Shown: positions 17,538-27,756, numbered from the stretch's first letter. The stretch: 64,000 nt of DNA from an uncultured Candidatus Saccharibacteria bacterium (GCA_964577675.1 CAZNZQ010000001.1:5875-69874), one strand, 5' to 3'. The notes: a model not told the origin generated them from the sequence alone. Numbers and translations are program-made.

Positions 17538-20057
17538 TTATTCTTCGGTTGTAGTTGCGGTAACCGGCAAGTTGAGGCTGCTGATAGTATCTTTATCTAG
17601 AATACTATCTAGTTCAAACTTTCGCCTAAGAGCTTCTGATAGGCTGCCGTCATCGTCAGAGAATACCTCTCCTGTTTGTTCACTATAAAATGCAAAGTCC
17701 TGCGCTCCAACTATAACTTCCCATCGAACACCGTCAAAGACAACACGGCCTCTTTCTCCAATTGATGTGTCATGTGCCGGAACCTCTCTCACTTGAATAG
17801 ATTTGTCGGTCAAATTAAAAGCATACACTCTTGACCTATCTTCAGAGAGCCAAAATAAGTGCGTATCCTTAATTCCAATCTGCATATTTTTATCTATTGT
17901 AATAGATGTTGAGGATCCAGCTTCTATCTTATACTCCCCTCCATTCTGGAGATCATACAACCACAACTCTTCCTTGCCATCTTTCTCCACCTGAACAATG
18001 ACAGCATTAAGGAGTGCGCCTCTAATTCTTTTAATCAAGTCTTTTGCAAAATCAGGCAAGCGATCCTCTTTCGTTTCTTCTGTCTTATCTTCCTTCTCTT
18101 CTTTTTTTATTTCTTGGACGATTTCGCGAGGAGAAAGTAAGGACCATGATTCTTTCTTCTCCAGCTTAAACCACTTATTCTTCGGTGTAACTGGAATGAT
18201 CACTGTGCTGCTTGTTGCAGTAGAAGTAGCTGTGATATCTGTACTCGCGGCAACTGAGCTTGTAGCTACTTCTGTCGTTGAAGTTGCGGTTACTAACGAG
18301 GATACCTCTTCTGTGGAGGTAGCCAAACTATTAGTTGTTGTCGCTACAGTTGTACTTGCGATATCTAAGGTACTGGTTGCTTGCGACACCTCTTCCTCAA
18401 GATACATATACCATATCTCTTCTTCATTGGTTTCGTTATTGATAATAGTTACTAGTCGCACACCATCAATCATCTCATCGTTAAGTATCGTATCTCTCGT
18501 AAAGTCTGGATGAGTATACTCTAGAGTAGAATCGTAAAGCACTTCTACCTTAACTGCATCGAGATATGTCACAGGCGTCTCACGTTCTAGGCTTTTAACA
18601 GTTACTTTTACTTGTAGCTGAGTCATATCTGCCCAGGTAGACGAGGCAGAAAGCGGGATTTCGAATGTTCTATATTTCATAGAGATCTCGTTGAGTTCAC
18701 CAAGAGAAGTCCAAGTAACTCCATCGAATGTGTACAGTATTTCTAAGAAGTTATTCTGTGACTCTTCTGGCGCTTGAGACAATAGCTCAGATGATGTTGA
18801 AACCATTTCTGTGGTTGATGCTAGACTTGAACTAGCTATAGAGAAGAGGTCGTCTGTGGAGGAAGCCGTTGTTGTGGCTGACAAAGAAACAATACTAGAG
18901 GTAGAGTTCTCCGGTGAAGCTTGTGACGAAGTGGATACAACCAAGGAGAGACCTTCGTCTGCCGTTTGAGTTACAGGCGTAGCTGTTTGTTCCTCTGTTC
19001 CTGGCTCGTCTATCTCTTGCGTCTCACTAGAGATTGAAGTAGTAAAAGATTCTTCGGGTGTAATGGCTACGAGCGGAGCCTCTTCCTCCATAGCCTGAAC
19101 AGGAGTGGCTACCTCCTCACTGCTCTCCTGCGCGAAAACAGTGGTAATAAAAAGTGAACCGATTCCCTGAAGAAGGTCCCGCATAAAAGATGTAGGGGCT
19201 TCAGGTGGTACTGAACTATCTCCTGCGGGCGTGACCTCTGCAGGGATTGACACTTCTTGGGATGCTGGCATGGTTTCTATCACAGGCGGTGGCACTACTA
19301 CCGTGTCTGTAACACTCTCAGACGGTGAGTTGTTAAAAATATTCCCCAGCGTTTCAGTTACCGCTCCTACAATAATCTCCGCGAATGATTGATTATCGTT
19401 TACTGATTGTGTGGTCGAAGCCTCAAGTGCCTCATTGGCAGTTTGAACAGGCGGAGATGAGGAGGCGGATGTTGAAGTTGACACAGTCTCTGTAGAGGAA
19501 GCTGAGAGTAATTCTTCAGAAGTTGAGGATGTTATCAGGGTTGTACTTGCGACAGCATTTATTACCTCAGTTGTTGTAGCTAGTTCACCAATAGTAATTT
19601 CTTCTTTATTAGTTATCGCAAGAGAAACAATTATCTTCTTAGGGACAGTTGCGTCATTAAATGTACCGTCGAAATTACCGCAATAGATATCAGCTGCTGT
19701 ATTCTTGTCTAGAATGGCTGAGTTCTTGTCGTTAAATTGTGAAGGGTCTGCATTAGATGTTGTCTCTCCTTCTTTCTCTGCATTACGAGGGTTGCTCCAA
19801 CCACCTAAACACGTCTCTGGATAAAAAGTTACAATATCAGCCTTACCACGTGGTGAGATAAAGCTGCCAACCACAAGAACAAGGACAAGCGAAGACAGTG
19901 CCATCATCATGTGCTTCTTCTGAAGAGCTCTATCGACTTGCTCTGAATACGAGAAGACCAAGTCATTCAGCGACTTGCTAACATTGTCGATATGAGACCC
20001 GACTTCGGGAAAATTCTTAGAAATGATTCTTGGTTTTCTTAGTTGGAATTTGCCCAT
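17538..20057 (-). CDS. single-pass membrane protein with very long S/T/A/E-rich low-complexity ectodomain
   Basis: 839 aa with an N-terminal TM (MMMALSSLVLVLVVGSF) and several hundred residues of S/T-rich low complexity. It has no recognisable catalytic motifs. Confidence 0.5.
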   Translation of the reverse strand: MGKFQLRKPRIISKNFPEVGSHIDNVSKSLNDLVFSYSEQVDRALQKKHMMMALSSLVLVLVVGSFISPRGKADIVTFYPETCLGGWSNPRNAEKEGETTSNADPSQFNDKNSAILDKNTAADIYCGNFDGTFNDATVPKKIIVSLAITNKEEITIGELATTTEVINAVASTTLITSSTSEELLSASSTETVSTSTSASSSPPVQTANEALEASTTQSVNDNQSFAEIIVGAVTETLGNIFNNSPSESVTDTVVVPPPVIETMPASQEVSIPAEVTPAGDSSVPPEAPTSFMRDLLQGIGSLFITTVFAQESSEEVATPVQAMEEEAPLVAITPEESFTTSISSETQEIDEPGTEEQTATPVTQTADEGLSLVVSTSSQASPENSTSSIVSLSATTTASSTDDLFSIASSSLASTTEMVSTSSELLSQAPEESQNNFLEILYTFDGVTWTSLGELNEISMKYRTFEIPLSASSTWADMTQLQVKVTVKSLERETPVTYLDAVKVEVLYDSTLEYTHPDFTRDTILNDEMIDGVRLVTIINNETNEEEIWYMYLEEEVSQATSTLDIASTTVATTTNSLATSTEEVSSLVTATSTTEVATSSVAASTDITATSTATSSTVIIPVTPKNKWFKLEKKESWSLLSPREIVQEIKKEEKEDKTEETKEDRLPDFAKDLIKRIRGALLNAVIVQVEKDGKEELWLYDLQNGGEYKIEAGSSTSITIDKNMQIGIKDTHLFWLSEDRSRVYAFNLTDKSIQVREVPAHDTSIGERGRVVFDGVRWEVIVGAQDFAFYSEQTGEVFSDDDGSLSEALRRKFELDSILDKDTISSLNLPVTATTTEE

Positions 20058-20292: not shown

Positions 20293-20528
20293 CAAAAACG
20301 GGGTCAGGCATCGTTTTAGAACCTGACTCAACTTGGCTGCGATGTAAGGTCTAGTACGTACTGTGTACGTGTGTGTAAGGGGATTTGGGCTAGTTCGAAT
20401 CTCAAACCCTAAGGGGTTTAGGTCGTTATTTACAGTTTATGAAATACCGTATTTGCTGTGATTTTACTGTGATTTCCGTTAATGAATCTGATATTAAAAA
20501 AGCCACAAGTTTTGTATACTTGTGGCAT

Positions 20529-20936
20529 ATGGCAAACCCAGGATCTCTTAAACCTTTCAAGAAAGGTCATGACCCAAGACGTAATGTTAAAGGGAGAATT
20601 TCTAAACCTCTATCTGAGTCTGGAGCTTTGAAAAAGTATCTTCTAAAGCACCTACATAAGAAAGTTACTGTTAATGGTGTACAAATGAGGATGATGGATC
20701 TCGTAGCGGAAAGACTCGTTGATGATGCTGTCAGAGGTAGTATTTCAGCATTAAAAATATTACTTGATAGAACAGAGGGTAAAGTAATGACACAAGCCCA
20801 GATGGCAAAAGTACGAGATAAAGAAGAACGAAAGTTGTCAGCAGCAGAAGACAAAGAGATGCTTCGAGTTATGAGACTTTTTGCAACCGAAGAAGAATTA
20901 AAGAAACTGGACGCTCAGGACTCGACCAAATCCTAA
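20529..20936 (+). CDS. phage-associated protein with DUF5681-like N-terminus
   Basis: MANPGSLKPFKKGHDPRRNVKGRISKP resembles the FKKGQSGNPxGRPKG motif of DUF5681 phage proteins. The start was chosen at the internal Met of ORF 20439..20936. Confidence 0.35.
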   Translation: MANPGSLKPFKKGHDPRRNVKGRISKPLSESGALKKYLLKHLHKKVTVNGVQMRMMDLVAERLVDDAVRGSISALKILLDRTEGKVMTQAQMAKVRDKEERKLSAAEDKEMLRVMRLFATEEELKKLDAQDSTKS

Positions 20937-21005
20937 GGTGTCTGTACTGTAGCTTACATAAAGGCATTTGTGTAGCCGAAGTTATCCACTCAAGTTACTC
21001 TAGGT

Positions 21006-21419
21006 CTATCTCGTTCCAAAGTGGGTATGTTGAACATAGTTGAACTCACCCTTATCTCCACCAACAATTCTTCCATCAATATTTTCCATATAGTACCCTA
21101 AAGTTTTATTTGTAAATAAATCTACAATACTTTTTTGAGTTATTCCCTGACCAACTGATATAGAGCGATACAAACAATCATTCGTATTTTTATCAAAAAT
21201 ATAGTCAGACGATGAGACAATGTCATTAGATGTATTTTGCTTGTTATATGTCTGATCTTCTTTTTCTCTTTTAGATCCTAATTCCAAGCACTGTTTCTGT
21301 AATGATATTTTGAGAGTCCGTTCATTTTGTTCAGGAATATATTTGAGAAGATAATATACAACTGAGACAGCGATAACCAAACATGACAAAGCAACTATAT
21401 GTTGAGTATTTTTATTCAT
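21006..21419 (-). CDS. hypothetical membrane-anchored protein (island)
   Basis: 137 aa with an N-terminal TM helix (IVALSCLVIAVSVVYYLL) and no recognisable domain. Confidence 0.35.
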   Translation of the reverse strand: MNKNTQHIVALSCLVIAVSVVYYLLKYIPEQNERTLKISLQKQCLELGSKREKEDQTYNKQNTSNDIVSSSDYIFDKNTNDCLYRSISVGQGITQKSIVDLFTNKTLGYYMENIDGRIVGGDKGEFNYVQHTHFGTR

Positions 21420-21422
21420 AAG

Positions 21423-21564
21423 TGTGTGATAGGCCTTATAAAGTGTGGTAGCAAAAATCCCACCACGTGGTGAGGTCTTGCGACCTCCATACCCGTTTCC
21501 AGGTACGGCCTATCACAGCAAAATCCACATGATGGGGTTTTTACTGTGATAGGACATTGTTCGC
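21423..21564. promoter_or_regulatory. palindrome-rich divergent control region (operator-like TGTGATAGG repeats)
   Basis: GTGTGATAGGCC at 21423, the inverse GGCCTATCACAG at 21509 and CTGTGATAGG at 21553; the last two form a 10-bp-stem inverted repeat around a 25-nt spacer. A perfect 12-bp palindrome CACCACGTGGTG sits at 21458, with GAGGTCttgcGACCTC next to it. Confidence 0.45.
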
Positions 21565-21710
21565 CATGCCGCTGATTACTCAAATGGTTTAGGCTACTTG
21601 TATTGATTTGTAAGAACATTATACCTCGTTTTTGAGGTCTTTGGTACTATAGCTTACTAATAAAATTTTGTGTAGAGAAATTATTTTATAATTAGTTTGT
21701 ATTTTTTACA

Positions 21711-21719
21711 TGCTATAAT
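21711..21719 (+). promoter_or_regulatory. extended -10 promoter (TGcTATAAT) giving a leaderless transcript
   Basis: TGCTATAAT ends 6 nt before the ATG at 21726, so the predicted TSS coincides with the start codon and there is no SD sequence. Confidence 0.4.
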
Positions 21720-21725
21720 CAAATT

Positions 21726-21905
21726 ATGTCAAAAACTATTCGCCAAAAAAGAGGAGACACTCTTGTCGGAACAATAGAGAAACAATACAATGTAGATCTT
21801 GGACATCGTTCTGATAAGAAATTAGCAACTGTTTTAAAAGAAACAGGTGCTCCTTCTTTGTCGAAACTACTTAAGATGGCAGACTCTTCGAAAAAGAAGA
21901 AATAA
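21726..21905 (+). CDS. small basic protein (59 aa), first gene of recombinase operon; candidate regulator/RDF
   Basis: MSKTIRQKRGDTLVGTIEKQYNVDLGHRSDKKLATVLKETGAPSLSKLLKMADSSKKKK. It is below the 60-aa cutoff of the ORF track. It ends 6 nt before the next ORF. Confidence 0.35.
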   Translation: MSKTIRQKRGDTLVGTIEKQYNVDLGHRSDKKLATVLKETGAPSLSKLLKMADSSKKKK

Positions 21906-21911
21906 GATGGT

Positions 21912-22436
21912 ATGAGCGAAGATAGTTTTGATTTTATTGATTATCAAAATTTGAGGAACAATATAATTGACTCTATTAATTATATTGCAACACTTTGGAT
22001 ACAAGCTGAAAGTATTGAAAAAGCACATCACCAAGAACTATACAGGACAATTATTTTTTATAACGCATCTATAGTAGAAGCATTATTACTGTTCTTTTGT
22101 ACTAAAAAGTCAATTTTAATTACTCAAGATAAATATACGGAGCCGTATAAATTACCTGACGGTTTTCAAAAAACAGGCGGAGAAACTTACATAGCTATAA
22201 AAAAGAAAGTTAAAAAAACATATGCCGAAATTTCATTTGCAGATCTACTTGGTGCTACTGAAGATTTCTTGGGGAAGGCTTTATTTAAAAAGATTACAGA
22301 TTTGAAAGATCTCCGTAATACTGTACATCTAGCAAAGAGTAGGACACTAATTAAGCAGGAAGTCGTTAAAGGTTCGAGTGATACTGTTTTTAAATTAGTA
22401 AAAAAAATTCAAAAAGAAGTTAGGGTTATCAACTAG
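21912..22436 (+). CDS. hypothetical protein (island)
   Basis: 174 aa, AT-rich codon usage, in an operon between the small ORF and the recombinase. No motif could be assigned; the RNTVH stretch is not a canonical HEPN Rx4-6H. Confidence 0.4.
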   Translation: MSEDSFDFIDYQNLRNNIIDSINYIATLWIQAESIEKAHHQELYRTIIFYNASIVEALLLFFCTKKSILITQDKYTEPYKLPDGFQKTGGETYIAIKKKVKKTYAEISFADLLGATEDFLGKALFKKITDLKDLRNTVHLAKSRTLIKQEVVKGSSDTVFKLVKKIQKEVRVIN

Positions 22437-22461
22437 CTATATTGCGTGTTTCGGGTATGTT

Positions 22462-23751
22462 GTGTGTTGTATGGAAAACATAACAGAACCAATAAGATAT
22501 TGCCTCTACGCCCGTAAGTCAAGCGAAGCTGAGGAAAGACAAGCACTTTCAATAGATTCTCAGATAAAAGAGATGCTTTCACTGGCAAGTAGAGACGGGC
22601 TTGAAATTGTAGATATTTACCGAGAATCCCACTCAGCAAAGGATTGTGGACAAAGACCGGTCTATAACCAGCTTTTAACCGATATACGAGCCGGTAAGTT
22701 CAATGGAGTAGTTGTTTGGCATCCAGACAGACTTGCACGTAATGCAGGCGACCTTGGGGTAATTGTAGACCTTTTAGACCAAAAGAAGCTGGTGGAGATA
22801 CGAACACATAGTCAGAGATTTACCAATAATCCAAATGAGAAGTTCTTGCTGATGATTCTAGGGTCACAAGCAAAGCTAGAGAATGATAATAAGAGTATCA
22901 ATGTGAAGCGTGGACTTAAGATGAGGTGTGAGATGGGGTTTTGGCCAAGCGGAGCACCCACTGGATACATCAACTCACCGAATCGAGATGAGAAGGGTGT
23001 GGTCTATATAGATCCTGCGCGCGCGCATGTAATGAAAGATATGTTTGTGAAAGTTGGTCATGGAGGGTGGAGTGGAAGGAAGCTCTATAAATGGCTAAAA
23101 GATATAAAGTTCACCACCAGGTATGGCAAACCTCTTAGCTTAAGTAATATTTATAAAATACTTTCCAATCACTTCTACTATGGAATGTTTGAATACCCAA
23201 AAGGTAGCGGTAAGTGGTATCAAGGTAACTACGAGCCAATCATTTCCAAAGATTTATTTACTGATGTTCAGAACCAGCTACATCAAGAAGTAAGAGTGAA
23301 AGGAAAGAATAAAGAGTTTACATTCACAAAGATGTTTACTTGTGGAGCATGTGGCTCGGGTGTCACTGCGCAAGAGAAGTATAAAAACCTAAAAGACGGA
23401 ACGATTAATAAGTACATCTATTATGGATGTACACGAGCAAAAGATATAAACTGCAAGGAGGGTTATATAGAGGAAAGAGTACTATTAAGTGAGTTGCTGA
23501 AAGTGTTAGATCAAATAGACTTAGATAAATCAGGACTAAAGAAAAAGCTTGAAAAGGAAATTGAGAGGCATAAAGTTTTTCACTCTAAAATCATGGGTAA
23601 AGAAGAAGAAAACTATGAAGTAAAAGACGTAGACATACGCAATTATGCTAAGTATGTCCTAGAGAAAGGATCGGTGTTTGAGAAGAGAGATTTGTTGGGA
23701 ACTTTTAAGAGTGGAGTGAGTCTAAAAGATAAATATATTACGTTAACCTAA
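22462..23751 (+). CDS. large serine recombinase (resolvase/integrase family)
   Basis: The N-terminal resolvase catalytic region contains YARKSS (the Ser nucleophile) and VVWHPDRLAR. A recombinase domain and a C-terminal Cys-rich zinc ribbon (CGACGSG...YYGCTRAKDINC) plus a coiled coil follow. Confidence 0.8.
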   Translation: MCCMENITEPIRYCLYARKSSEAEERQALSIDSQIKEMLSLASRDGLEIVDIYRESHSAKDCGQRPVYNQLLTDIRAGKFNGVVVWHPDRLARNAGDLGVIVDLLDQKKLVEIRTHSQRFTNNPNEKFLLMILGSQAKLENDNKSINVKRGLKMRCEMGFWPSGAPTGYINSPNRDEKGVVYIDPARAHVMKDMFVKVGHGGWSGRKLYKWLKDIKFTTRYGKPLSLSNIYKILSNHFYYGMFEYPKGSGKWYQGNYEPIISKDLFTDVQNQLHQEVRVKGKNKEFTFTKMFTCGACGSGVTAQEKYKNLKDGTINKYIYYGCTRAKDINCKEGYIEERVLLSELLKVLDQIDLDKSGLKKKLEKEIERHKVFHSKIMGKEEENYEVKDVDIRNYAKYVLEKGSVFEKRDLLGTFKSGVSLKDKYITLT

Positions 23752-23757
23752 TTTATT

Positions 23758-24492
23758 TTAAACTATTTCTACCCACGAAGAGTCATAGCCAATGGTTTCT
23801 AGCAATGTGTCAGTATTAAGGGATGGCGGTTTCTTTATGAAAAACTTTAATCGATTTTCAGGGATATTTTCTTTTATTGTAAATTGAGAACCATGTCTTT
23901 GCCAGGTAAACTTATGTTCTTGAGTTTCCTTATCGAAACCTTCTAGGTTTCCATTTTTATTCTTTTTCCAAAAAAATCTATCTTCTGGATACCTAACTGT
24001 TTCGTACTCAAATACACTAAATGGGATTTTCTCATCTTCAAAATCCGTTGGCTTAAGAAGCACAACGGTTCTTATCTCTTTAAATTTATCCCTAAGTCCT
24101 TCTACTCTTCCATTCCAAATTTGAAGGACCTGGGCTCCAATACCATCATCTGTATCAGCAATTGTATCAAAAGAATACTCAGGATTATTTCTACCAGATA
24201 TAAGTCGTACTGAGGTCACAGTATGAGGGCTGCCTGCTTTTACAGTTTTTGCCCCCCAAGCGAAACTCCCTTTAATTACATCATCTAATCCAACATTAGA
24301 AGGTTTCCATTCCGCGTCTATTGCTTTTGCAAAAATTCTTTCCCACTCTGAACCTTCCAGTGCAGGATGTCTACTGGTGGCAAGCATGAAAACTAATTCC
24401 ATACCAAGAATACTCGTAAATGATTTTGGGAAATCATTTAATTGGTATGGTGGCACAGCCTTTTGCACTGTTTTTAGTTTTGGTTCTGACAT
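23758..24492 (-). CDS. putative type II restriction endonuclease (partner of the m5C methyltransferase)
   Basis: 244 aa, sitting 7 nt downstream of and co-directional with the MTase. It has no similarity I can name. The assignment is by genomic context only. Confidence 0.35.
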   Translation of the reverse strand: MSEPKLKTVQKAVPPYQLNDFPKSFTSILGMELVFMLATSRHPALEGSEWERIFAKAIDAEWKPSNVGLDDVIKGSFAWGAKTVKAGSPHTVTSVRLISGRNNPEYSFDTIADTDDGIGAQVLQIWNGRVEGLRDKFKEIRTVVLLKPTDFEDEKIPFSVFEYETVRYPEDRFFWKKNKNGNLEGFDKETQEHKFTWQRHGSQFTIKENIPENRLKFFIKKPPSLNTDTLLETIGYDSSWVEIV

Positions 24493-24498
24493 AATATC

Positions 24499-25491
24499 TT
24501 ATTTTACTCCAATTTTAGATTTTACGCTTCTTTTTTGCGCGGGAATGGGCTTTTTTGACAATGCTTCTATTATTGCACTTGCCACGGCTTCCATTTGAGG
24601 AACTACCACTGCGTTTCCGGCTTGTTTTCGTGCTTGTGAATCAGGCACTATTATTCTGTAATCATCCGGGAACCCTTGTAGTCTAAACATCTCTCTCGGA
24701 GTAAGTCTTCTTTCTCCATTCACAACAAGATAATTATAAGATCCGCTTGCTCTCAGTGCGCAAGAGTAGGACTTCATACTAATGTTACCTGACATATTCT
24801 CATGCCACACAGAAGGATAGGCAGGGGCTGTCTTATTCTGTTCCTTCAGTTTTCTTTGTAACTTTAATTTAAAATAATTACTTAAGAAATGCTTAGAATC
24901 TATTTCTTTATTATCTTCTAAAATGTCTTCAAGCTTCTTAGCTCTTCTCTTTCCTTTGGTGGGAAATTCGAAAGGATGATTATCTCTGAAACCTACTATC
25001 ATTATTCGCTCTCTTTTCTGAGGCACACCAAAATCTAAACCGTTCAAAACCTTGTAGTGAACAAAATAACCTAACTTTTCAAGACTTGAAATTATTGTAT
25101 TAAAGGTTCTACCATGATCATGGGTTGTAAGGTTCTTAACATTCTCAAGGAACACTACTTTAGGTTTTTTATCTTTTATGATTCTTTCCACTTCAAAAAA
25201 CAAAGTTCCCCGTGTATCTGCAAAACCTTTCCTGTTTCCTGCAATACTAAAAGCTTGGCAAGGGAACCCTCCAGTTAAAATGTCATGGTCGGGGATTTCT
25301 TTTGTGGTTATTTTGGTTATATCTCCGTGAGGTTTATCACCAAAGTAGTTTTCATACATTATTTGAGCTGATTCGTCCCATTCAGAACCAAATACGCAAG
25401 TTGCCCCAGCTTTTTCAAAGCCGATTCTAATTCCGCCAATTCCAGCAAATAAATCTATAAAAGTTAATTTCTTCTCTGTATTTTTTTTCAT
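24499..25491 (-). CDS. DNA (cytosine-5)-methyltransferase, M.HhaI-like
   Basis: Motif I FIDLFAGIGG, motif IV GGFPCQAFSIAG, motif VI VVFLENVKN and motif VIII QKRERI. The N-terminal ~190 aa align closely by eye with my recollection of M.HhaI. The start was taken at MKKNTEKK. Confidence 0.85.
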   Translation of the reverse strand: MKKNTEKKLTFIDLFAGIGGIRIGFEKAGATCVFGSEWDESAQIMYENYFGDKPHGDITKITTKEIPDHDILTGGFPCQAFSIAGNRKGFADTRGTLFFEVERIIKDKKPKVVFLENVKNLTTHDHGRTFNTIISSLEKLGYFVHYKVLNGLDFGVPQKRERIMIVGFRDNHPFEFPTKGKRRAKKLEDILEDNKEIDSKHFLSNYFKLKLQRKLKEQNKTAPAYPSVWHENMSGNISMKSYSCALRASGSYNYLVVNGERRLTPREMFRLQGFPDDYRIIVPDSQARKQAGNAVVVPQMEAVASAIIEALSKKPIPAQKRSVKSKIGVK

Positions 25492-25585
25492 TACTCTAAT
25501 AAGTATACACCAAAACGGGTGCCTAAATTTTAGGCTCTCCACAGGTGGAGATTTTGAACAAATTAGAATAGTATTGTTTCAAAAG

Positions 25586-26878
25586 CTATTGAGTCTCCGT
25601 CTTATCTTCTAGCGATTTTAACTCAGAAAACTTAGCTGCCATTGTAGGGTTACCTTTAACAAGCTTCTTAACAGTTAACTCTTCTGCTTTGTCATTAGCT
25701 AGACGCAAGTTGTTCTCTGAAGAGATAAGATCTTTTTTTGTTTTTTCGAGCTGTTTGATGGATTCATCAATGTGATCTATGGCAGTTTTAAACTTTTCAG
25801 ATGCGAGGCGATAATTGCGATTAAAACCATCTCGGAATTCAGTCAAATCATTTTCAAAATTAGTAACATCAATGTTTTGATTTTTAACAATTGCAAGCTC
25901 AGCTTTATACTCAAGTGATTTGAGGGAAGCGTTACGAAGCAAAGTTATTATTGGAATAAAGAATTGTGGGCGAATAACATACATCTTTGAATGACGATAA
26001 GACACGTCAACTATACCTCCATTGTAAAGATCACTCTCCGGCTCAAGTAGTGAAACTAAAACTGCATACTCACATTTCTTTTCATCTCGATCTTTATCAA
26101 GTTCTTTAAGAAAATCCTCATTCTTTTTCTTTGTGGCAGTTTCGTCTCCTTCGTTTTTCATTTCAAACATAATAGAAATGATCTCATTGCCATTCTGATC
26201 AGTTTCTCGATATATATAATCTCCTTTACTGCCAGTTTTAGAATCATTATCTTTTTCAAAATATGCATTTTGAAAAGCTGTAGCACGAAGCTTGTTGAAT
26301 TCGTTTTCACAGTGTTGCTCTAGTGTCTCACCAATCATTTTTGTTGAGAGTTTAAGCTTCATATCTTTACGAAGAGCAATCTCCTCATCTTTCATTTTTA
26401 TGATGTCGTCTTTGGTTTTTAGTTCGCTAGAAAACTTCTCTTTTAGAGATGTCTCGAGTAACTGTTTTTCAACATCTTTACTCTTAAGTTCACCAGCAAG
26501 CTCGTCACGTTCTTTCTCGATTTTATTTACAGCTTCATTAATAGCCAGTTTCTTCTCGGTTTCAGTGGATGCAATTTTTGCTTTTAGTTCAGATATCTCA
26601 AGTTCGCTCTTTGATTGATGTAGAGCTACTTCACGCTCCTTTTCTGCTTTAAGCTTTGCTATTTCTGTATCTTTTTGAGAAAGATCATCTTTTATCTTAT
26701 TTTTAATCTGTTCTTCGGCAAGCTTCACAGCATTCTCTTTATCAGCCTTAAAAAGCCTTTCTCTCTGGAGCAGCTCTTCTTCAAACTGATGATCTCTTAC
26801 TTGCTTGAGAATGTCAGCAAAACCAGCTTCATCAATTTTAAAAGCTTTATGACAGTTAGGGCAGATAATCTCGTTCAT
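25586..26878 (-). CDS. DUF2130-like protein: N-terminal C4 zinc ribbon, long coiled coil, C-terminal RmuC/PD-(D/E)xK-like region
   Basis: CPNCHKAF...; roughly 200 aa of heptad-rich E/K sequence; then GDYIY...[13 protein letters not shown] (a candidate D...ExK nuclease motif). Confidence 0.45.
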
Positions 26879-27643: not shown

Positions 27644-27714
27644 GCTGGGGTATAAGGACTCGAACCTCAATTAACGGTGCCAGAAACCGTTGTCCTACCA
27701 TTAGACGATACCCC
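27644..27714 (-). tRNA. tRNA-Gln (anticodon CUG)
   Basis: Reverse complement TGGGGTATCGTCTAATGGTAGGACAACGGTTTCTGGCACCGTTAATTGAGGTTCGAGTCCTTATACCCCAG folds as a cloverleaf. It has a U1-A72 acceptor, anticodon stem ACGGT/ACCGT, loop TTCTGGC and a TTCGAGT T-loop, and closely resembles E. coli tRNA-Gln. CCA is not encoded. Confidence 0.75.
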
Positions 27715-27756
27715 AATTAATATTTTGTGGCTCACTACCTCGTTCCTGCCCTTAAT

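Follow-up and report, generated by a model that had tools for sequence, protein, structure and literature searches.

The interval 21420-21725 of the window, by which we mean the whole 64,000-nucleotide stretch of DNA analysed from an uncultured Candidatus Saccharibacteria bacterium, almost certainly holds a LOOT RNA gene (Rfam RF03000), predicted to be transcribed leftward from the minus strand. This gene lies back to back with an integrase operon, and it may act on the gene that follows it on its own strand. The locus itself is a further member of a known RNA family, while its mode of action is what we infer here.

The LOOT RNA motif was first described in 2017 by Weinberg et al. (PMC5737381), was shown as a "metagenomic-based RNA" in Rfam 14 (PMC7779021), and was cited for its covariation in a 2020 paper on covariation-based structure prediction (PMC7657543). 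Rfam types LOOT only as an sRNA, and no proposed function was found in the searchable literature, a body of text that does not include the 2017 supplement.

A complete LOOT RNA on the minus strand

Searching the window against Rfam with cmscan gave a match of RF03000 to the minus strand at 21472-21595, scoring 83.5 bits at E = 2.9e-14, where the gathering score is 46.4. The alignment was complete and not truncated (model positions 1-121 of 121), and it was the sole strong non-tRNA Rfam match of the whole window. All six LOOT helices were present, together with the CCUAA.C/GCAUGG internal loop, the GAAA loop of P4 and the GNRA-type loop of P5; a few non-canonical pairs were flagged by the cmscan alignment in P2 and in the apical part of P3. 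The minimum free energy fold of the minus strand recovered P3, P4 and P5, and the minus strand of 21415-21625 folded with z = -5.07 relative to dinucleotide shuffles. The P1/P2 loop resembles the 11-nt GAAA-tetraloop receptor, and some LOOT relatives carry the canonical version of that receptor, CCUAAC...UAUGG; judging by this likeness, tertiary docking may take place. The search pattern for the receptor-like loop also matched inside a group I intron.

The preliminary description had presented the same interval as a dense palindromic control region with a leaderless promoter for the recombinase operon. Every motif that it listed was recovered at the position given. On the plus strand, TGTGATAGG occupies 21425-21433 and 21545-21553 and recurs inverted, as CCTATCACA, at 21509-21517; the repeat finder returned the 10-bp stem formed by CCTATCACAG (21509-21518) and CTGTGATAGG (21544-21553) around a 25-nt spacer (21519-21543). 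The perfect 12-bp palindrome CACCACGTGGTG occupies 21461-21472 and GAGGTCttgcGACCTC occupies 21472-21487, and the promoter motif TGCTATAAT at 21711-21719 stands 6 nt ahead of the ATG at 21726. As described, a minus-strand gene borders the interval on one side and, on the other, a plus-strand operon in which ORFs of 59 and 174 aa precede a large serine recombinase (Table 1). When the repeat was sought elsewhere, as had been suggested, the exact 9-mer was found three times on both strands of the 64-kb window, all within 130 bp, for an estimated chance expectation of about 0.5 matches. Because the 9-mer is confined to one 130-bp stretch, the repeat pattern is more than chance. Repeats of 12 and 13 nt between 21420-21725 and distant parts of the window were at chance level.

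It is the meaning given to these motifs that has to be revised. The palindromes are not a DNA control region of the recombinase operon; they are helices of the LOOT RNA encoded on the other strand. Likewise, the third TGTGATAGG copy falls where translation of the 137-aa gene would begin and is no part of the recombinase operon.

Table 1. Features of the LOOT locus and its neighbouring genes, with positions counted from the first letter of the window
Feature	Positions	Strand	Basis
137-aa ORF with hydrophobic N-terminal segment, directly downstream of LOOT	21006..21419	-	ORF and family search
Copy of the P3 5' arm, GGCCUAUCACA, 5 nt before the 137-aa ATG	21425..21435	-	Repeat finder, family comparison
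Tail CCACGUGGUGGG and U-run, terminator-like	21453..21471	-	Terminator scan, duplex energy
LOOT RNA core, full RF03000 model	21472..21595	-	cmscan
P5 hairpin with GCAA loop, corresponding to GAGGTCttgcGACCTC	21472..21487	-	cmscan alignment
P4 hairpin with GAAA loop	21488..21508	-	cmscan alignment
P3 long hairpin, its arms being two TGTGATAGG copies	21509..21553	-	cmscan, repeat finder, minimum free energy fold
P1/P2 with internal loop CCUAAAC/GGCAUGG	21562..21595	-	cmscan alignment
Conserved leader ACAAAUCAAUA, outside the Rfam model	21601..21611	-	Family comparison
Candidate -10 TATAAT of the LOOT promoter, predicted start near 21611	21618..21623	-	Sequence read
Second promoter-like site TACACA-17-TATAGT, upstream of the first	21646..21674	-	Promoter scan
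Extended -10 TGCTATAAT, 6 nt before the 59-aa ATG	21711..21719	+	Conserved in L221-L226
59-aa ORF, conserved small protein family	21726..21905	+	41 homologues
174-aa ORF, constant partner of the 59-aa protein	21912..22436	+	Homologue contexts
Large serine recombinase, probable ATG 22471	22462..23751	+	Pfam, PHROG

Concerted change of the repeats in orthologous islands

Contigs designated L221-L226 encode a 59-aa protein that is 90% identical to that of the window and keep the gene order of the window: a DUF5681 gene, a 139-aa gene, LOOT, the 59-aa ORF, a 175-aa ORF and a 429-aa recombinase. The 139-aa gene is the orthologue of the 137-aa gene and occupies the same position in L221-L225. Beyond the recombinase, the L221-L226 contigs carry an OLD-like nuclease, as against a restriction-modification pair in the window. 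The block common to the window and L221 measures 3.4 kb (20334-23694), and its flanks differ on both sides.

Within this block, the repeats read CTTGACTGG in L221 and TGTGATAGG in the window, so that 4 of 10 positions are changed in all three copies. The L221 copy lies 3 nt before the ATG of the 139-aa gene and has changed together with both arms of P3. The preliminary description had named absence of the repeats from homologous islands as an outcome that would speak against its reading; the repeats are in fact present there, although only as covarying structure and not as a kept sequence. Its further suggestion that the TGTGATAGG repeats are operators of the 59-aa protein is contradicted by the same comparison, in which the repeats are not conserved along with the supposed binding protein. 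An operator is unlikely because a 90%-conserved repressor is not expected to follow a repeat change of this extent. On comparative grounds, the concerted change of the three copies favours pairing at the RNA level over an operator bound by a protein, and from these alignments we conclude that the TGTGATAGG repeats are not operators of the 59-aa protein. The P3-like motif TTGCTGTGATTTTACTGTGAT at 20453-20473, considered as a further target of P3, was rejected, since it is unchanged in L221, where P3 differs.

A copy of the P3 arm at the downstream start codon

Read on the minus strand, 11 nt of the copy GGCCUAUCACA are complementary to the P3 3' arm, and the window copy extends this complementarity (GG with CC) past that of the 5' arm itself. 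Across the family, an exact copy of at least 9 nt was found in 29 of the 108 loci listed (27%), compared with 2.5% when P3s from another locus were used (p = 8e-22). The copies reach up to 18 nt, span the linker and the P3 5' arm, and are located after the U-run; they often include the unpaired linker 5' of the arm, and by inspection an A/T-rich, -10-like sequence stands directly upstream of many of them. Downstream of 24 of the 30 copies, an ORF of 40 aa or more on the same strand begins with ATG no farther than 28 nt away, and for 23 of these no farther than 11 nt. In an ATG-anchored test, applied to the first downstream ATG, 20 of 104 loci exceeded the 1% quantile of the controls, and the window came tenth. 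Taken over the LOOT loci listed, a start-region copy is visible in only 19-27%. Its frequency is equal in loci with and without a recombinase (Fisher p = 0.2), and the architecture of P3 plus downstream copy is also found in loci that lack a 59-aa homologue (tblastn) and in loci that lack a recombinase.

Two comparisons between loci suggest that P3 may be a specificity element. The paralogues L114 and L118, which come from one genome, are almost the same along 350 nt apart from P3, where four base pairs have changed with full compensation, and the loci L101 and L141 share LOOT, the copy and CTTATG, after which they run into unrelated genes. Although the P3 stem has been rewritten between L114 and L118, no copy was found at their downstream start codons, and P3 must therefore have another partner or role there.

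A conserved leader and a terminator-like tail

The LOOT loci share two elements that flank the core. On the 5' side, a leader with the family consensus ACAAYUGAAUA ends a few nucleotides before model position 1 and is present in nearly all of the approximately 113 LOOT loci listed. A -10-like hexamer 5-8 nt before the ACAA of this leader likewise recurs in nearly all LOOT loci listed, and in the window the promoter and leader read GGTATAAT-GTTCTT-ACAAATCAATA. The upstream TACACA-17-TATAGT site is also conserved in the orthologue L221, and a -35-like CTACACA is seen again at other LOOT loci.

On the 3' side, P5 is followed in the family by a tail segment of 12-14 nt and then by a U-run, and the segment is complementary to the top of P3, including G.U pairs. 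In the window, the tail CCACGUGGUGGG (21459-21470) pairs with the apical P3 sequence CCCAUCAUGUGG (21525-21536) in a 12-bp duplex of -22.6 kcal/mol. The palindrome CACCACGTGGTG is contained in this tail region and pairs with the top of P3; in L221 the palindrome is broken to CACCACGTGAGTG, yet 13 pairs with apical P3 are kept. When each tail was paired with the apical P3 of its own locus, the mean energy was -22.1 kcal/mol, compared with -14.3 kcal/mol (sd 4.7) for pairs from different loci, whereas for 13 of the 14 loci that were looked at, the tail folded by itself gave just -3 to -9 kcal/mol. The G.U pairs of the tail/P3 helix would not pair on the opposite strand. The terminator scan gave a match running from 21474 to 21459 with the tail ATTTTTGCTA, in which a G+C-rich stem directly precedes the U-run, as in a Rho-independent terminator; we regard it as a putative terminator. 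Family-wide, the terminator-type stem is that of the tail with apical P3.

Distribution of LOOT and its gene neighbourhood

Species-representative genomes were surveyed with a pattern built from conserved LOOT positions, which returned at least 120 loci; among those listed, 7 were false positives, and Rfam confirmed LOOT in all 15 of the related loci that were sampled. The loci listed came nearly all from metagenome-assembled genomes of Patescibacteria/CPR, and several genomes gave two loci. A scan of viral contigs with GCCTAAACC...GGCATGGC gave 48 matches, nearly all of which were chance matches or belonged to a phage coding family, the only true LOOT being L043.

The first downstream ORF was encoded on the same strand as LOOT in 87 of the 108 loci listed. 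In the loci inspected, it starts approximately 13-70 nt past the U-run, and by inspection its leader is A/U-rich and lacks a Shine-Dalgarno sequence. The downstream genes range in length from 60 to more than 800 aa and belong to varied families, including DNA methylases, Mrr-type and other nucleases, zinc-ribbon proteins and membrane-anchored proteins, as well as one Ltp lipoprotein and one superinfection-immunity protein. They look like variable genes of an accessory or defence type.

A large serine recombinase homologous to that of the window was found in 51 of the approximately 114 loci listed (45%), and 49 of 54 recombinase copies stood upstream of LOOT in divergent orientation (p = 2e-24). 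Close orthologues of the recombinase begin 127-300 nt from LOOT. The window differs from them only in that the 59-aa and 174-aa ORFs intervene between LOOT and the recombinase. Many LOOT loci that are free of a recombinase adjoin housekeeping genes.

The recombinase operon and its candidate promoter

The recombinase combines the catalytic, recombinase and zinc ribbon domains of a large serine recombinase (PF00239 Resolvase, 1.4e-24; PF07508 Recombinase, 7.1e-13; PF13408 Zn_ribbon_recom, 2e-06) and matched the integrase family phrog_95 at 3.3e-68. The motif upstream of its operon, TGCTATAAT, was not listed by the consensus promoter scan: it has no -35 hexamer and qualifies only as an extended -10. 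The arrangement of TGCTATAAT, 6 nt and ATG, without a Shine-Dalgarno sequence, is conserved in L221-L226, and the remote 59-aa homologues L220, L227 and L228 carry a -10-like hexamer 6-9 nt before the ATG, again without a Shine-Dalgarno sequence. The spacing of TGCTATAAT to the ATG and the lack of a Shine-Dalgarno sequence are those of a leaderless promoter, and a leaderless start of the 59-aa mRNA, as put forward in the preliminary description, is plausible on this basis.

The 59-aa protein is always followed by a partner of approximately 170-180 aa. Because members of its family often occur with no recombinase nearby (as in L220, L227 and L228), the idea that it is a directionality factor is weakened. 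The structure model of the 59-aa protein is a three-helix fold (pLDDT 77.6), for which a PDB fold search returned no match among solved structures, and the 59-, 174- and 137-aa proteins had no match in sequence searches of Pfam, PHROGs, PADLOC or PDB.

Mobile-element setting

The block has the appearance of an accessory module next to the integrase of a mobile element from a CPR bacterium; by gene content, the rest of the window is ordinary bacterial chromosome. On phage contigs that encode orthologues of the recombinase, the conserved upstream region comprises the end of a terminase-like gene, tandem GTTACCAAC-type repeats, TCTGGACT, TTGCGTCATT and the ATG. In genome loci, the GTTACCAAC-type repeat and its accompanying motifs also occur between the recombinase and LOOT, and in L118 a 21-bp copy of the repeat flanks a 4-kb insert on both sides at this position. 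Because of the phage contigs and the duplication around the L118 insert, the tandem GTTACCAAC-type repeat is likely the attachment site. Attachment repeats around every recombinase-LOOT insert were considered and rejected, a clear 21-bp repeat being present in L118 only, and no direct repeats of an attachment site were found in the window. The notion that partial LOOTs in phage contigs mark an attachment site within LOOT was also discarded, since the "partial" nhmmer matches proved to be complete LOOTs with the receptor variant CCUAAC...UAUGG.

Two readings of the relation between LOOT and these elements can be put side by side. LOOT may be cargo of integrase-bearing elements, as suggested by its place inside the 3.4-kb block that L221 also has, with different sequence flanking it on either side, and by the phage contig L170, where LOOT lies 4.5 kb from the integrase and the terminase gene abuts the integrase attachment region. 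Alternatively, LOOT may be a host-side landing site for such elements, with which the phage loci are consistent: LOOT was found within 6 kb of the integrase in only 10 of 51 of them, leaving 41 of 51 phage integrase loci without LOOT. The many recombinase-free LOOT loci next to housekeeping genes point the same way.

Proposed mechanism and alternative explanations

We tentatively propose that the target of LOOT is the next gene downstream on its own strand, and the simplest reading of the mechanism is a leader-type or C4-type regulator. The tail would pair with the top of P3 to form a terminator-type helix, and the choice of the top of P3 between local pairing and pairing with the tail could decide between termination and read-through. 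The P3 3' arm would likewise have two partners, namely the P3 5' arm and the copy of that arm at the start region of the message. When placed on the start region, whether of a read-through or of a separately started message, the 3' arm would block initiation on a message that lacks a Shine-Dalgarno sequence. P3 would thereby serve as an address, each helix fitting the gene downstream of it. By nearest-neighbour energies, the window sequence reaches -71.1 kcal/mol with canonical P3, -62.5 kcal/mol with the 3' arm forced onto the copy and -63.7 kcal/mol with the tail helix forced, so that the alternative helices cost 7-9 kcal/mol more than the canonical fold. Because these energies favour canonical P3, a switch would need outside input. 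P3 and the tail helix are interleaved and together would form a pseudoknot. An efficient terminator would make LOOT and the 137-aa message separate molecules, with the pairing arm held in a stable helix.

A wider proposal, which we put forward as speculative and rather unlikely in its entirety, is that LOOT is a programmable regulatory RNA belonging to the accessory module beside the integrase in CPR phages and integrative elements. The hypervariable P3 would be its address, and through the 5'-arm copy at the start codon the 3' arm would silence the adjacent moron or defence gene; the tail would set termination by competing for the top of P3, paralogues within a genome would avoid cross-talk by rewriting P3, as in L114 and L118, and the tandem GTTACCAAC-type site between recombinase and LOOT would be the attachment site of the element.

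Two alternatives place the function of the repeats in the DNA. That the repeats and palindromes are operators through which the 59-aa protein, another repressor or a directionality factor controls the recombinase operon would suit a region between divergent genes and a protein that is small, basic, conserved and first in its operon. We nevertheless regard it as barely credible: on the other strand the repeats are recognised as part of a LOOT RNA of full length, they lie 170-300 bp away from the TGCTATAAT promoter, and all three copies differ from those of L221 at 4 of 10 positions under a protein that is 90% identical. In addition, the palindrome is not conserved while its RNA pairing is kept, the same architecture recurs in loci without a 59-aa homologue and in loci without a recombinase, and the 59-aa family itself occurs without a recombinase. 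The other DNA-level explanation takes the P3 palindrome and its direct copy as recombination sites of the serine recombinase, serving terminator excision or cassette exchange. The tight and oriented linkage between recombinase and LOOT would fit, as would the joining of an identical LOOT and copy to unrelated genes exactly at the ATG (L101 versus L141) and the size of the P3 palindrome, which at approximately 45 bp is that of a serine-integrase site. Serine recombinases, however, require only an identical core of 2 bp, a need that does not explain the 9-18 nt of kept identity, and the copy is equally common with and without a recombinase (Fisher p = 0.2). A different motif, the tandem GTTACCAAC-like repeat, behaves as the attachment site, and the GNRA loops, the receptor motif and the G.U pairs point to selection at the RNA level; recombination at P3 is accordingly a very improbable account.

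The remaining alternatives accept the RNA and differ over what it does. LOOT could be a free-standing, efficiently terminated sRNA that acts in trans on the downstream message, as C4 does, or on other targets or a protein. Its predicted own promoter and terminator-like tail, the -10-like A/T-rich sequence just upstream of many copies, and the hypervariability of P3 between paralogues, as expected of a specificity determinant that avoids cross-talk, are all consistent with this. It is nonetheless an unlikely explanation, since the complementary arm is buried in a stable helix of 10 bp or more, the gap from U-run to ATG shrinks in some loci to 13 nt, which leaves no room for an independent promoter, and in 70-80% of loci nothing matches the start region next to them. 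Finally, the start-region copy might be functionless, a by-product of LOOT joining new genes, with the role of LOOT unrelated to its neighbour. The copy does occur in a minority of loci only, and the copies often take in the unpaired linker, which suggests copying rather than selection for complementarity. Still, 23 of 30 copies are placed 0-11 nt before the ATG, the three copies have changed in concert between islands with a homologous downstream gene, and the window copy lengthens the complementarity (GG with CC) beyond the 5' arm; we consider a by-product quite improbable. The explanation that we prefer to all of these is regulation by LOOT of the same-strand gene downstream.

Discussion

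LOOT, an orphan since 2017, is a well-supported structured RNA of compact build, found almost only in uncultivated CPR bacteria. The present analysis provides several handles on it, namely the partnership with a divergent serine integrase, the accessory and defence genes downstream, and the three-way covariation of P3 and its copy together with the pairing of the tail. The function of LOOT thereby becomes a hypothesis that can be tested by compensatory mutations in a reporter. These handles also single out LOOT as a marker of mobile-element ends in CPR genomes. The lesson for annotation is that dense palindromes in an intergenic region should be compared with RNA family models, on both strands, before operators are called.

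Compared with RF03000, the window copy has all six helices, the CCUAAAC/GCAUGG loop, and the GAAA and GNRA loops, and its core is identical in kind. Beyond the Rfam model, the window and most relatives carry the 5' leader and the 3' tail that pairs with apical P3. Neither these two elements nor the P3-arm copy and the recombinase linkage were found in the searchable LOOT literature, the 2017 supplement lying outside that literature.

A functional parallel is found in phages P1 and P7, in which expression of Ant is regulated by the C4 antisense RNA (PMC8201110). Like C4, LOOT is a structured RNA that may belong to a temperate element, and it stands just upstream of the gene it would control, on the same strand. 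C4 is complementary to the ribosome-binding region of its target gene, and the matching sequences vary between related elements, as they do in LOOT. Mechanistic details of the C4 antisense RNA and the immI region, c4-icd-ant, were reportedly worked out by Citron and Schuster in 1990. Unlike C4, LOOT has diverse downstream genes and most of its loci lack such a match; the two RNAs share no similarity of sequence or structure, and the pairing segments of C4 are exposed loops, whereas that of LOOT is a helix strand. The Rfam c4 families gave no match in the window at the gathering threshold, nor any at E<=1 in 21300-21800. By analogy, then, the resemblance of LOOT to C4 is functional only.

Riboswitch and attenuator leaders resemble LOOT in standing just before a gene on the same strand, in helices that would exclude one another, in the U-run and in compactness; c-di-GMP-I riboswitches, for instance, have a compact fold with a tetraloop and receptor. 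LOOT differs from such leaders in that no ligand or conserved pocket was identified for it, its downstream genes share no pathway, and its terminator helix would span approximately 85 nt of structured RNA. A type I toxin-antitoxin system was rejected, as the downstream genes, of 60 to more than 800 aa and including methylases and nucleases, are not small hydrophobic toxins.

The gene arrangement recalls an integron platform, with a divergent recombinase, a promoter that faces away from it and variable genes, and in L118 with an insert flanked by 21-bp repeats. In contrast to an integron, the recombinase is of the serine and not the tyrosine type, and the structured element is an RNA with GNRA loops; given the serine-family recombinase, and with no cassette array or attC-like repeats seen at the locus, an integron was rejected. 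Temperate phages also carry "morons" in the lysogeny module next to the integrase, an example being ltp beside int in Streptococcus phage TP-J34. We know of no structured leader RNA for such morons. The LOOT-downstream genes are like them in being accessory genes with a predicted promoter and terminator of their own beside an integrase, and the neighbours of LOOT include one protein of the Ltp family and one superinfection-immunity protein.

Boundaries and cargo of the island

The window and the orthologous island L221 have a 3.4-kb block in common, and its left boundary, as judged from the sequence comparison, is a non-coding stretch of ~200 nt on the 5′ side of the DUF5681 gene, with ~70% identity between the two islands. 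This stretch contains a T-arm-like sequence, GGGCTAGTTCGAATCTCAAACCC, and gave no Rfam match and no tRNA match. The DUF5681 gene itself probably starts at the ATG at 20529 (MANPGSLKPF) rather than at 20439. A hairpin, GCCACAAGT...ACTTGTGGC, runs up to this start codon and covaries in L221, where it reads GCCGTAATT...AATTACGGC.

On the other side, the two islands carry unlike cargo immediately 3′ of the recombinase stop codon, and this site looks like a defence-gene hot spot. A tRNA-Gln (CTG) gene lies ~4 kb past the recombinase and may mark the far boundary of a small island. Downstream of the unit formed by the LOOT RNA and the 137-aa gene, a Ser/Thr-rich protein of 839 aa, without a family match, is the first in a long series of large minus-strand genes; some of these encode Ig-like or dockerin domains, and most are without a family match.

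The 59-aa protein and its partner of ~170-180 aa form a two-gene module that is also present without any recombinase or LOOT. The neighbourhoods of this module vary, as seen in three remote loci with a homologue of the 59-aa protein (L220, L227 and L228) and in one 44-kb ENA contig.

Coordinates of features in the window and in compared loci
Locus	Position	Strand	Feature
Window	17538-20057	minus	839-aa protein
Window	20334-20528		non-coding block
Window	20497-20531		hairpin at DUF5681 start
Window	23758-26878		cargo: 244-aa protein, C5 DNA methylase, DUF2130 protein
Window	27644-27715	minus	tRNA-Gln (CTG)
L221	2654-2906		counterpart of non-coding block
L221	6020-8180		cargo: OLD-like AAA/TOPRIM nuclease, HTH_3/Peptidase_M78 protein
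L169-L219	~100 nt 5′ of recombinase start		motif set: tandem GTTACCAAC-like repeats, TCTGGACT, TTGCGTCATT
L010	3460-8208		large tRNA array, group I intron
L010	6440-6590		short structured segment
L118	-4014 and -78 from LOOT		direct repeat ATGTAGACAAACTGGAGACTA

Motifs and rearrangements in compared loci

The motif set conserved upstream of the recombinase in the viral contigs L169-L219 is often located immediately 3′ of a terminase-like gene's stop codon (protein end ...HDDLADAF). In this clade of integrases, it probably represents the 5′ region together with the attachment site. A different motif, CTTCGCAA...TAAGCTAGGGT...GGAC, was repeatedly found ~60-110 nt 5′ of LOOT in part of the loci (L089, L103, L085, L119, L182, L169 and L170), with a GTTGGTAAC-type repeat on one side and the promoter of LOOT on the other. 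In the phage contig L010, the short structured segment is situated between two tRNAs and has a receptor-like loop and GAAA loops.

Two paralogous LOOT loci of one genome differ by an insertion. In L118, a 21-bp direct repeat stands on both sides of a 4-kb insert, which separates LOOT from a frameshifted recombinase gene; L114 has one copy of the repeat and lacks the insert. From -78 to +260 around LOOT, the two paralogues are nearly identical across ~350 nt, a stretch that also covers the promoter and the point where the downstream gene begins, except in the stem of the long hairpin P3, where four base-pair changes are all fully compensated.
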